From contig OZ024741.1 in assembly GCA_964016885.1 (NCBI GenBank), positions 200,198,001 to 200,262,000 of the forward strand: a stretch of DNA of 64,000 bases, read 5' to 3'. Numbering within the stretch: position 1 is the stretch's first letter; each line of letters opens with the position of its first letter. This document shows, piece by piece, positions 40,154 to 57,600 of this stretch. Both the position numbers and the translations under genes were made by a program. This stretch comes from Eledone cirrhosa. Lineage: Eukaryota. Under the pieces are notes generated by a model, which did no database searches, was not told the DNA's origin, and worked only from the letters and a program-made list of their open reading frames with translations.

Positions 40154-40853
40154 TTTACATTCATTTTGATTTTGTTTTTCTCACCTTATAATGCCTGCAA
40201 TATAAGTCTAGTGCAAAATACTATGGTTAATATAATTGACTAAAATCTTGTAGATGGTGTCCAGCATGGCTGCTTTCCATTGACTGAAACCAGTAAAAGA
40301 TAAAAGTGGGTCAGCATTCCCTTTTATTGCAGGTTACTGCATCTCTCTCTCTCTCTCTCTCTCTCTCTCTCTCTCTCTCTCTCTCTCTCTCTCTCTCTCT
40401 CTCTCTCTTCTCCCTCTCTCTCTCTATCTCTCTCTTTTCGCAATGGCAAGTAATTATATATCCTTTAGCTTCTCACAGTAGTCAGCTAGTGTATGGAAGC
40501 AATCTACTTTCCATTTCGTTGTTATCCCGACATCATGGGGTGATTTTAGCATTGAGAAATAATCCAAACAACTGAAAAAAAAATATCTCATCTAGAATCA
40601 TGTTTTTCTTTTGTGTTGTAATAAATATTATCGAGATCTATCATGTCAGTTGAATGCACGTTGTTGCCATTTTAGTTACATTTACAGTTATTGTTGTTAT
40701 TTCTGTTTACTTTATATATATATATATATATATATATGATGAATATAAGTCAATAGAGCGCTCAACCGAGGGAGCAAAATAGTAGTAATAATAATAATAA
40801 TAATAATAATAATAATAATAATAATAATAATAATAATAATAATAATAATAATA

Positions 40854-41564
40854 GGAGCAGGCCCTCAAAACGAAGTGGTTGAAGCACCATATCTACAAGG
40901 AGGAGGCTAGCCCACTGTGCAGGATCTGTGGAGAGAGAGAGGAGACTGTGGCTCACATTGTGTCCGAGTGTAAACACCTAGCCCAGACCCACTATAAGGG
41001 CTGGAGACACGATGTGATGGGCAGGGTGATCCACTGGCACCTGTGCAAAGTAAACAATCTACCACATTCTGAGAAATGGTATGAGCATAGGCCAGAGGCG
41101 GTGATGGAGAACAGTCAGGTGAAGGTGCTGTGGGATTTTAGGATACAGACGGACAAAAAACTGGAACACAATAGACCTGACCTGGTGGTTATGGACAAAG
41201 AAAAAAGATCGTGCCTGATTGTGGATGTGGCCTGCCCGTTCGACACGAGAGTGCAAGAGAAGGAGAGGGAGAAAATTAACCGATACCAGGACCTAAAGTG
41301 GGAGGTGAAAAGGATTTGGAACTGCCATGAAGTCAAAGTGATCCCGATTGTCATAGGCGCACTGGGGACTATCTCCAAAGGTTTCCAGGGATGGTTAAAG
41401 AAAATCGGCCCCTTCACGCTTTTTGGAACGCTTCAAAAGGCATGCTTGCTTGGAACAGCAAGAACCCTCCGATACGTCCTGAATATCTGAGGCTGCAGGT
41501 AGTGGCTTGATATTCAATCCAACGGACTTTCCAGTTAACCAACATCAATGACTGAGATTCAAGG
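40854..41564 (+). mobile_element. R4/Dong-like non-LTR element, 3' part (CCHC + RLE)
   Basis: CRICGEREETVAHIVSEC, RHD, WDFRIQTD, RPD, D..CP, EK..RY..L; flanked by (TAA)n on both sides. Confidence 0.9.
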
Positions 41565-41636
41565 AATAATAATAATAATAATAATGATGATGATGATAAT
41601 AATATTATTATTATTATTATTATTATTATTATTATT

Positions 41637-54137: not shown

Positions 54138-54205
54138 TATTATTATTATTATTATTATTATTATTATTATTATTATTATTATTATTATTATTATTATTAT
54201 TATTA

Positions 54206-54626
54206 CAGCTGCATTTATCTTGCTTTATGTTCATACGAGTTATCACCAAGTCACAACCAGTGACCTCAAGAGACAACAAGGTCCGCCATGTTCAAGAAAG
54301 AACATACATACTCACACATGCATCTTTAGTGTTTAGACTTGTGATGTACTTATATTGACAGAATCTTCCTTAGTATATGGGCAGTTCCCATTAGTACTAT
54401 CTTTTGTATTTCTCCTATACGCGGGTTTCCTGGGATTTGCGATAAGTAATCATTAGACCCCTTAGGTATCATTCCTAGAGCGCCTACAACCACTGGTATT
54501 GTTTTAGTTCTCAATTTCCACATTTTTCCAATTTCTATCTCCAGGTCCTTATACTTGCTCAATTTTTCAAATGTTTTTATAGATACATTCTTGTCTATTG
54601 GAACGGACATATCAATTAGCAGGCAT
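54206..54626 (-). mobile_element. R4/Dong-like second family 3' end duplicate
   Basis: Near-identical to 52019-52438; flanked by (TTA)n. Confidence 0.9.
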
Positions 54627-57600
54627 ATTATTATTATTATTATCATCATTAGTATTATTATTATTATTATTACTATTTGGCTCCCTCGGTTGAGCACGCT
54701 ATTGACTTATATTCATCATGCAGAAACAACATCTGAATATTTCTACAAAGAACATACCCGTACCAAGCAGGAAGACATACCTAAAACTCCTGATACAGAA
54801 AACAGACTCGTTCATTAAAAGGTTGCGTTGGCGTGCCTTTTATTTCGATAATCAGGAAAAAGGTGGACAATAAACAGGATAAATTTGGGTTTAAAACTTA
54901 TAATAACCCTCCGAGTAACCCAGCATTGCTACCCTTCGAAAATGATGTTTTGGAACTCATACGGAGTATCAAATTTCGGAATAGGAGCTATTTCTTCCAG
55001 CAGTACCTGAAGAATAGAATTCGTTCTATTAAGGATTCTAACGCCATGCACCTCCACTCCGACAAAACTGGCAATCTATATCAAGTGGAGCGCAGTGCTT
55101 ACCATCAACTGCTACATAATGTTGTAATTAAGGATTACCGTAAAACTAATCGGAGTGTCATTAATGACATCAACGATGCTGGGTTTAAAATCACCTCTGA
55201 TCTCAACATCCAGGACCGGACTGAACCACTGGACCCTATTTCTCCCCACTTTACCCTAAAGGATCACAAATCCAATTTCCCCAACAGCCCCTCTATTCGG
55301 ATTATTAACCCTACGAAGTCCGATTTAAGTAGACTTAGTAAAAGGATTTTAGATAGAATTATACCTGAAATTAGAAGCTTGGCCCCTCTTGCACTGTGGA
55401 ACAATTCTTTCGCGGTGATTGATTGTTTCAACGGCATATGCAACAAGGAACATTGCCGTTTTATCCAATTCGACATCAATAATTACTACTCCTCCATCAC
55501 TTTACCACTTCTTCTTAGAGTTATCAATTTCGCTAAAACACTCACAGTGGTTAAGGATTTCGAAGTTGATGTCATCCTCAATGCCCGTAAGTCGGTGATT
55601 AATTCCGACGACTCTATTTGGATTAAAAAATCTAATAGTACTCCATTCGACGTGAGTATTGGCTCCAGCGATTGTGCGGAGGTTACTGATCTTATCGGCC
55701 TTTTCCTTCTTTTCTCTATCAAGGAAGAATTCCCCAACGTGGGCGGTGGTTTGACCCGTGATGACGGTCTTTTGACCATGACAAAGTGCGGCCCACGTGC
55801 TTGCGACAGGTTCAGAAAAGAACTCACAGCCTTCTTTAAAGGCTTCAACCTCTCCATACAGGTTTAGGCCAACCTCTCGGTCGTTAATTACCTCGACGTT
55901 ACCCTAAATGTATCCAATGGCTTGCACTACCCGTAGAGAAAACCGAATGATACGCTTAATTACATAAGTAAGCATTCTAACCAACCATCCTGCCAGCATA
56001 ACCAAGAACCTGGTAAGAAACGTTTCTTTGTGGCTTCGCCGTCTATCTACAAACGAGCATATTTTCACCGACCATTCCACATATTACAATGAAGCTCTTG
56101 CTCGGAGTGGATTTGTCGATAAGGTAGCATATACAGAGTATGAGAATAGACCCAGGAAAAATAGATCCCGACGCATTATATGGTATAACCCACCATATAA
56201 TATGGAGGTGGCCACACCATTAGCTAAGATATTTCTCTCCCTTATTAAGAAGCATTTCCCCCCAGCACATAAATATAATAACATTTTTAATAGAAATACC
56301 ATTAAAATTTCTTACTCTACGACTCCTAACCTTGCACATAACATCACTGCTTCAAATTTAGCTAAATTACCTAGCCGTAGGAACACGTGCAAGCCTGTAG
56401 CTAGTACTAACTGTAATTGTAGGAATCGGGTAGACTGCCCCCTATCCGGGAAATGCCTCTCCAGTAACATTGTCTACAAATGTAAGGTTGAAACACCCAC
56501 GCCCTGTAAGGCCTACATAGGGTTAACCGCCAATAGATTCAAGCAGCTTCTTTGCATGCATGCCCATTCTTTTCTTAACCCTTTAAGAAGGAATATGACG
56601 TCACATTCAGCTTATATCTGGAGTCTAAAAGACAACCACACCCAATATAGGATACACTGGGAGATCCTAGCTAAAGCTAGATCGTATAACGGAAATAAAA
56701 GACCATGCGACCTCTGCGCCGCTGAAGCTCTGGAAACACTCTACGCCAATGATCACATCTTAAACAAAAAATCTGAGGCAATTTCGGCTTGTAAACATAA
56801 ATTGCATAAAACTTTCCTGTATTACAGCCACACATTATATCCTAACGGATAGTACGAAAAACACGCGGATAATTTACCTCTTGATGTGGTAGCTAAGTAT
56901 ATTTTATGTTTATATCATTACTTATTTTTATAGGTAAGTATATATTACCTGTATGTTCTGTGAAGGTACGTATACTTTCTCGTACGTATATTTGCTTCTA
57001 TTTGTTATAGGTGTATATATTATATTATATAAACTGGTACATGTGTATATGGTTATGTGTATACGTGTATTTTGCGTTTGTGTGGGTATACGGGTTTGCA
57101 CGTATATAGGTGTGTATATGTGTACTTTGTGTTTTTGTTGACGTACGTTTAGCGAACATATGTGTATTTCCCTATAGGTATGTGTGTGCGTGCGTGCTTT
57201 ATATACGTATTTATGTGTGTATATTTATATACGTTTATATAATTATATGTAAACACGCACACACACACATATATATATATATATATATATATATTCTTTT
57301 TTATATATATATTTTGTGTATTTGGTGTATACGTCCGTATGTGTGCGGGTACAGGTGTTGCGCGGGTCTTTCTATGTGTGCGCGTGTTTTTGTGTACATG
57401 CTTGTATATGCATACCATGGCGGGTGTTTTCGCGTACGCATGTGTATGTACGTATATGGATGCGTGTATGTATATATTTAATTATTGTTGATATCAATGA
57501 CCTCTGTAATTTATTTACATTATTCTTAACTCTGAAGCCGAGAATCATTCGGTTTACTAAATAGAATATTAGTCTACGACTTCATTTATACCATAAACGT

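Follow-up and report, generated by a model that had tools for sequence, protein, structure and literature searches.

In a 64-kb stretch of Eledone cirrhosa contig OZ024741.1 (the window, in which all coordinates below are positions), seven retroelement copies lie stacked in TAA/TTA microsatellite and are framed by pieces of a Penelope-like element (PLE). The original prediction had placed the stack at 40736-54720, between inverted 5' ends of the PLE. The whole unit is larger and extends from (TA)12 at 40713-40737 to (TA)46 at 59318-59409, which are likely the left and right halves of the PLE target microsatellite. The predicted pair of leaders was recovered: 40736-40785 is the reverse complement of 54671-54719 and of 57930-57978 (46 of 49 bases, E 5e-17 within the window; the next best match has an E of 0.08). 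The same is true of the six Dong-like copies of two families (A on the plus strand; B, C, D, E and F on the minus strand) and the one Tx1-like copy between the leader pieces, and of the flip of the repeat from TAA to TTA at about 41603 (TAATAA-TA-TTATTA), where the orientation of the Dong-like copies also reverses. The repeat was further said to separate all copies, which holds for every spacer except that between C and D (45755-45774, plus), a degenerate TTA/TTG sequence that is partly the coding sequence of copy C itself.

On the left side of the flip, the inverted 50-bp leader piece (40736-40785, minus) extends from the CTA behind the TTA run as far as the start codon and is followed by (TAA)22 (40786-40851, plus). 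Copy A (40855-41565, plus), a 5'-truncated member of family 1, retains the CCHC and the restriction-like endonuclease end. The flip itself lies in the central tract (TAA)6(TGA)4(TAA)2-TA-(TTA)10 (41566-41636). On the right side, the Dong-like copies are all on the minus strand and the TTA tracts are given on the plus strand. Copies B (41637-43620) and C (43726-45754), both of family 1 and 5'-truncated, are separated by (TTA)35 (43621-43725); the truncation of C falls at the codons of its NYRP motif, with microhomology to TAA. Beyond the degenerate spacer come copy D (45775-46002), a 228-bp 3' fragment of family 1, (TTA)19 (46003-46059), a full-length Tx1-like long interspersed element (46060-51973, plus) and (TTA)15 (51974-52018). 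The Tx1-like copy has an ORF1 region, an apurinic/apyrimidinic (AP) endonuclease, a reverse transcriptase (RT) and a zf-RVT domain, and its open reading frames (ORFs) are broken. Two copies of family 2, the 5'-truncated E (52019-54136) and the 422-bp 3' fragment F (54206-54627), flank (TTA)23 (54137-54205). An interrupted TTA tract with TCA-TCA inside (54628-54672) is joined to the leader of PLE copy 1 (54673-57919, plus), which has its ATG at 54718, a broken ORF for RT and a C-terminal endonuclease extending to 56849, and a 3' untranslated region (UTR). PLE copy 2 follows in tandem (57920-59317, plus). It had been described as intact, which is true of its 4-unit TTA run but not of the element, since after (TTA)4, the leader and 562 bp the sequence jumps internally to the 3' UTR; it terminates at the second standard 3' end of the family.

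All ten TAA/TTA runs of four or more units in the window fall within 40786-57931, and the eight tracts of the locus amount to about 157 triplets in total, as compared with 4 in the PLE seed. Pfam detected RT in copies B, C, E and the Tx1-like copy, and AP endonuclease and zf-RVT in the latter, whose matches are to Exo_endo_phos, RVT_1 and zf-RVT. Pairwise identities are 99.6% for A/D, 99.3% for E/F, 94.8% for B/C, 91.1% for C/D and 87.6% for A/B. Two Dong-like copies carry duplications at their 5' junctions, a 30-bp unit present three times at 54047-54137 in copy E and 20 bp duplicated once at 43600-43620 in copy B; such duplications are likely due to re-priming when cDNA synthesis ends.

Identity of the flanking PLE

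The PLE had been labelled a Naiad. According to the sections of Craig et al. 2021 (PMC8557442) on these clades, Naiads have an N-terminal endonuclease, CxC and DKA and no canonical hammerhead, whereas the Hydra clade has a C-terminal endonuclease, RWK, DKT, a CxCX5C linker, CxxC, CxH, hammerheads and (TA)n targets, with GxKF/Y not conserved. In the three-frame translation of the window PLE, an N-terminal endonuclease, CxC before the RT and DKA were all absent. Its ORF opens with RT-proximal motifs, and an endonuclease-like region recognized by motif inspection (NIVYKC...AYIGLT) is found at the C-terminus. The motifs SDKTGN (DKT), RWR in place of RWK, GFKT, CNCRNRVDC (CxCX5C linker), CDLC (CxxC) and CKH (CxH) are present, and a text comparison by eye follows Hydra-1_Obim and not Naiad_Obim. 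Judged by motif inspection and this comparison, the flanking element is a Hydra-clade PLE. Pfam detected no PLE domain in it, and GIY-YIG was without a match even at an E of 10.

Other features of the family can be set beside the Hydra description. Insertion occurs in (TA)n, as seen in 81 of 94 sampled sites that end in TA and at both ends of the 40713-59409 unit. The ORF is about 2.1 kb, and the tandem unit, with a repeat-rich 3' UTR, is 3.26 kb, as compared with less than 3 kb given for Hydra elements. A hammerhead-like motif is predicted in PLE copy 1 (57772-57822, plus). Its stems I-III pair and GAAA is present, while the core is a non-canonical CAGAAGA throughout the family, with A where U is canonical in 190 of the 192 copies aligned at that column. 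Rfam gave no hammerhead match for the motif, and its fold z-score was 0.12; the only Rfam matches overall were to microRNA and small RNA families, driven by microsatellite and below the gathering score. Two more PLE-type frames were noted in the window. One, at 23868-26291, is a second Hydra-type family with an open frame of 808 amino acids whose RT part is about 42% alike to that of the element at 54718; the other, at 16966-18990 on the minus strand, is a 675-amino-acid RT frame of another kind.

The inserted families and their targets

Full-length relatives of both Dong-like families were found in the same genome: L334 for family 1 (1141 amino acids) and L329 for family 2 (1216 amino acids), 35% alike in protein. 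Each has a single ORF with RT, CCHC and a C-terminal restriction-like endonuclease, and R2 proteins are their best relatives with a solved structure (E 4e-30). No N-terminal C2H2 zinc finger was seen by eye in either, and none by Pfam at an E of 0.1; an Atlas search returned only unnamed RT clusters. Exact-pattern counts, which are lower bounds, gave at least 1,348 family-1 3' ends, at least 3,840 family-2 3' ends and at least 1,460 Tx1 5' ends in the genome. To characterize the ends, we took the first 30 matches by position on one contig for each, which are not random draws. All 30 family-2 3' ends were followed by a TAA tract with a search pattern free of TAA. The family-1 pattern itself contained TAA and thus offers no test of the family-1 target. 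Full-length 5' ends begin at TAA in L326, L327, L334 and L488. The domain set, the lack of an N-terminal zinc finger and the R2-like relatives, together with the TAA target, fit R4/Dong. The statement that Dong-type elements use (TAA)n agrees with these family-2 ends and with the relevant parts of PMC3812793, PMC7998251 and PMC3774820, where Bombyx mori Dong, DongAg, DongBg and Darwinula Dong1/2 of the R4 clade are given this target. The same parts of PMC7998251 and PMC3774820 also ascribe to the R4/Dong clade a divergent N-terminal SANT/Myb-like domain and a 5' ribozyme resembling that of hepatitis delta virus.

The RT of the Tx1-like copy matched L1 ORF2 at an E of 4e-45, as compared with 2.5e-20 for R2. 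We assign the element at 46060-51973 the Tx1 label provisionally, from architecture and targeting. All 30 sampled 5' ends of this family are preceded by a TTA tract, again with a pattern free of the repeat. The family is TTA-specific; in the section of PMC4494074 on Tx1 targeting, the criterion for a target preference is more than 20% of flanks in one repeat type.

An abundant 190-bp short interspersed element (SINE) with a TTA tail and the polarity of the Tx1 family occurs at many loci and has a copy in the window at 39125-39317. The motif GGCCTTGTGCC-AAAA is found both in the Tx1 5' UTR (46214-46232) and at the 3' end of the SINE (39290-39317), and a similar motif, CCCTTGTGG..AATAAA, closes the Tx1 families (51950-51973). 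Going by these sequence features, the Tx1 family may be what mobilizes the SINE. Two further kinds of 5' end lie behind TTA runs, beginning TTGAATGC and TTGGTCTAAG (L249, L254, L264, L333, L473, L212, L305). The TTGAATGC end leads into Tx1-like bodies, which indicates that more TTA-targeting families exist. An older Tx1-like copy at 5561-8265 on the minus strand is 71% alike, shows no TTA at the ends inspected, and has its 3' part cut by a PLE piece.

Stacks and polarity across the genome

Among the 90 anchored ends, 67 adjoin another member across the tract (25 Tx1, 18 family 1, 10 family 2, 9 SINE and 5 PLE). The polarity rule, by which Dong sense goes with TAA and Tx1, SINE and PLE sense with TTA, was kept in 67 of 67. 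For background, six runs of four or more units in nine arbitrary 10-kb stretches give a rough figure of 200,000 runs genome-wide, and 201,266 overlapping matches to (TAA)10 give a rough figure of 20,000. The high member adjacency fits a preference for long tracts left by earlier insertions.

Flips from TAA to TTA gave 699 matches per strand, or about 400 sites, and reverse flips gave 95. Several of the former arise from Tx1 or SINE 3' ends that enter TAA before TTA. At L465 and L478-L479, a Dong copy is split by an inversion with one breakpoint in the TAA tract. Inverted PLE leader arms were found at none of the 29 flips examined, six of which were followed up to 10 kb. With about 400 flips in the genome and none of the 29 bearing PLE arms, the flip is not diagnostic of a PLE palindrome, and we rejected it as a signature of PLE fold-back.

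PLE tails as TTA seeds

The sequence upstream of the PLE TTA run is matched 15,843 times in the genome. Among the first 100 sites listed, 94 were classed, and the run leads to the leader in 3, to (TA)n in 81, to other short-repeat endings in 6, to the SINE in 2 and to a Dong-like copy in 2. Besides being the leader motif, (TTA)4-CTA is the main 3' end of the PLE family; a second fixed 3' end lies about 75 bases upstream of it. Two of the 91 non-internal sites bear Dong (95% interval 0.3-7.7%), which corresponds to a few hundred Dong-bearing PLE tails genome-wide and agrees with the 5 of 90 obtained from the Dong and Tx1 ends. Sites with five or more TTA units number 615 genome-wide, a set enriched for insertions. 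Of the 100 inspected, 7 are directly followed by a Dong or Tx1-like copy, 11 by the SINE and 3 by unassigned 5' ends; in 6 more the SINE comes after a short TA run.

Eleven stacks that start at a PLE tail were traced to the far end, and 10 of them end in TTA and then TA repeats (L095, L186, L192, L335, L185 with L481, L482, L483, L486, L487 and L488; the exception is L190). The CTA of the PLE is restored at the far end in L095, L186 and L335. This mode of closure indicates that the inserts are nested within the PLE tail. These stacks hold three families and reach about 12 kb. Outside this count are L188/L189, where the PLE tail is intact and the stack starts past the TA run, L336, where the end was not reached, L484, and L485, where no insertion is present.

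These counts bear on the prediction that a PLE-borne repeat had become a self-feeding landing pad and that other PLE copies would carry Dong at the same internal TTA. The self-feeding part stood, as stacks do feed on their own tracts (67 of 90 ends) and PLE TTA runs seed stacks elsewhere, but the internal leader is not a notable target. Leaders with five or more TTA units occur four times in the genome and only the one at this locus bears Dong; in the first 30 leader loci by position, none bears Dong and one adjoins a SINE tail. The internal leader as a hot spot was hence set aside. Given that internal sites make up about 3% and that 2% of sites are hit, the Dong frequency at leaders is what the tail rate predicts, neither hot nor cold. 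Seeding by the PLE is supported and works mainly through 3' tails, but only 5 of 90 sampled ends touch a PLE, so that PLE tails explain a minority of stack junctions.

Origin of the locus

The locus likely grew from an inverted PLE 5' junction, with the PLE arriving first in (TA)n; we put the probability of this reading at roughly 0.7. Both ends of the stack stop at the TTA-CTA motif of the PLE, and (TA)n frames the whole unit. An inverted PLE piece is found within 1.5 kb upstream in 13 of 30 leader loci, and inverted PLE structures are described in the corresponding part of Craig et al. (PMC8557442). At L127, an empty TAA|TTA junction lies before the leader, the sole exact match genome-wide. 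Dating by divergence, as had been suggested, found the PLE copies further diverged than the inserted ones. Substitutions relative to the column majority are 4.6-5.1% for the PLE 5' parts, 3.0% for B, 2.3% for C, 1.3% for Tx1, 1.0% for E and 0.7% for F. Copies A and D belong to a subfamily, with 4.4 and 5.3% relative to all copies and 1.3 and 0.9% relative to the closest third. TGA-TGA was seen in 1 of 343 tracts elsewhere and here in two tracts placed as mirror images, a pattern noticed after the fact that fits a once-contiguous palindrome. The TGA could have come from local template switching in the palindrome, from the leader's own TCATCAT or from A-to-G editing.

Several observations weigh against this origin. 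The inverted arm ends at the start codon, and no such end was seen among the TA-abutting ends examined; in the leader loci, 11 of 13 arms end at standard ends, the other 2 running out of the locus. The absence of PLE arms at the 29 flips counts here too, and the flips that lack them include the tail-to-tail Dong pairs L452 and L477 and the inversion through Dong at L465. Subfamily structure may have inflated the divergence of the PLE. The inverted arm also lacks a rare G (3 of 82 segments) common to both right-hand leaders. Between the arms of other insertions the difference is 5.3% (221 of 4190 bases in 48 arm pairs) as compared with 5.1% for random pairs; since arms elsewhere are as different as random pairs, the missing G weighs little, and shared private variants as a test for a common template of the arms proved uninformative. 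Finally, the empty or shorter allele that the prediction had called for was not recovered, nor was a spanning read, in the public runs examined. The left flank is present in 3 runs of one sample, where contigs stop at 40669; 2 reduced-representation runs had no reads at the left-flank site, and a read search on copies C and D gathered family-wide reads and skipped the junction.

The non-standard end of the arm and the central TA would both be accounted for if about 40738-41603 had been inverted later, within a one-polarity stack that sat in a direct mini-tandem of the PLE, with breakpoints at the (TA)n and at the junction behind the CATCAT of the leader. On this view the seed would remain PLE-borne, while the inverted frame would be younger than PLE integration. 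L465 provides an example of an inversion with a breakpoint in the tract. On the other hand, inverted 5' arms are common in this PLE family (13 of 30), so no extra inversion event is required, and a direct tandem of tract and 47-bp leader was seen in none of the leader loci examined. We consider such an inversion unlikely.

The differing arms at the rare site, the 85 of 90 ends that are not PLE-adjacent and the flips formed without PLEs could also be read as signs that the microsatellite or a young stack was there first. Two 5'-truncated PLE copies would then have been joined to it through TTA microhomology, and the PLE would be a neighbour and not the seed. Precedents are L031 and L128, in which a PLE cut off at the TTA run is fused to TTA from outside the element or to a SINE tail. 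This course of events, however, requires two insertions at opposite ends of the stack, facing apart and each ending in (TA)n. Moreover, the PLE copies exceed all seven inserted copies in divergence, and at other loci the stacks are nested inside PLE tails. It is quite improbable in our judgement.

The near identity of E with F and of A with D (above 99%) raises the question of whether part of the stack was produced by misassembly or by local tandem duplications in place of separate insertions. No independent reads span the stack, the truncation points of B and C nearly coincide, and F and D could be template jumps or duplications. Against this stand the identities of B/C, A/B and C/D (94.8%, 87.6% and 91.1%), the individual features of each junction, and the same architecture at dozens of other loci, which make an artefact or local duplication highly improbable.

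For an inverted PLE 5' junction as the origin, the likely steps are as follows. A Hydra-clade PLE would first have entered (TA)n, its short inverted arm originating during integration, and would have left its own (TTA)4 on both arms of the junction. The two Dong-like families and the Tx1-like family would then have inserted successively into the PLE-derived runs, each insertion keeping the repeat on both sides and so presenting a fresh target. Divergence and nesting suggest that the PLE was followed first by B and C and later by Tx1, A, D, E and F. The insertions that made E or C may also have produced F and D through template jumps, so that the seven copies need not represent seven events. 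In target-primed reverse transcription, the nicked antisense strand primes the cDNA. With that strand as primer, the restriction-like endonuclease of Dong would nick the TTA strand and the AP endonuclease of the Tx1 family the TAA strand. RNA ends that carry the repeat would presumably anneal at the nick, and the tracts may have grown by tails, target duplication and slippage.

Discussion

The components of this locus resemble known systems to different degrees. The Dong-like families are like Dong/R4 in the single ORF with RT, CCHC and restriction-like endonuclease, in (TAA)n on both sides and in full-length 5' ends right after TAA. What differs is that a Tx1 family and a SINE use the target of these two families, which are only 35% alike in protein; the available portions of PMC3812793, PMC7998251 and PMC3774820 describe no long mixed stacks for Dong elements. 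The window PLE is like Hydra-1_Obim, as presented in the Hydra part of PMC8557442, in DKT, RWR for RWK, the linker, the C-terminal endonuclease, CxxC/CxH, (TA)n, the tandem and inverted structure and a hammerhead-like motif. By eye it is a different family in its 5' UTR and ribozyme. It further differs from Hydra PLEs in having as main 3' end a (TTA)4 run that serves other elements as target, and in the A for canonical U in the hammerhead core. With the Naiads treated in the same article it has in common being a PLE, the (TA)n bias and inverted 5' copies, whereas the Naiad endonuclease position, CxC and DKA set the two apart.

Tx1 families on microsatellites and on other transposons are both reported in parts of PMC4494074 and PMC4640811. 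Kibi (TC), Koshi (TTC) and crocodilian (TTCC)n/(TTTC)n families illustrate the former, and Xenopus Tx1L or Tx1-Mar/SINEU the latter (target sections of PMC4494074). The Tx1-like family here is like Kibi and Koshi in AP endonuclease plus RT, a strict repeat target, tandem insertion and a possible SINE rider, and like the Xenopus systems in that one mobile element supplies the target for another. It differs from all of these in its (TTA)n target, which the target sections of PMC4494074 do not list for Tx1, in using the strand opposite to Dong and in a provider that is a PLE tail and not a DNA transposon. TAA, CAA and GAA microsatellites arise in Alu and L1 tails (relevant part of PMC3812793), so retroelement ends are a known source of A-rich triplet repeats; here, in contrast, the PLE itself encodes the repeat, which arises without mutation before site-specific elements make use of it. 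In an octopus, Dong-R4, L1-Tx1 and PLE families are listed as recently active in a section of PMC13282606 that makes no statement on their targets, and PLE-derived retrozymes are treated in part of a preprint (bioRxiv 10.64898/2026.07.22.740005). A TTA-specific Tx1 family and a PLE tail as seed were not found in the open literature; subscription papers or Repbase may hold either. The link from a Hydra tail to Dong and Tx1 seems undescribed, while the other ingredients are known. As Dong on TAA, Hydra on TA and elements that target elements are all known, and PLE tails account for a minority of junctions, the surprise is moderate.

Taken together, we hold with moderate confidence to a chain of three tiers. 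The PLE would make about 16,000 (TTA)4 seeds in (TA)n, and Dong on one strand and Tx1 with its SINE on the other would colonise them into hundreds of multi-kilobase stacks, with the present locus a rare two-way case from an inverted PLE 5' junction. Such a system is a countable case of a mobile element that creates targets for others: within a single genome, the empty seeds, which are dated, run to thousands and the filled ones to hundreds, and the birth and growth of microsatellite-based safe sites become testable. The Tx1-type and Dong endonucleases, which likely cut opposite strands of one repeat, make a clean pair for biochemistry.

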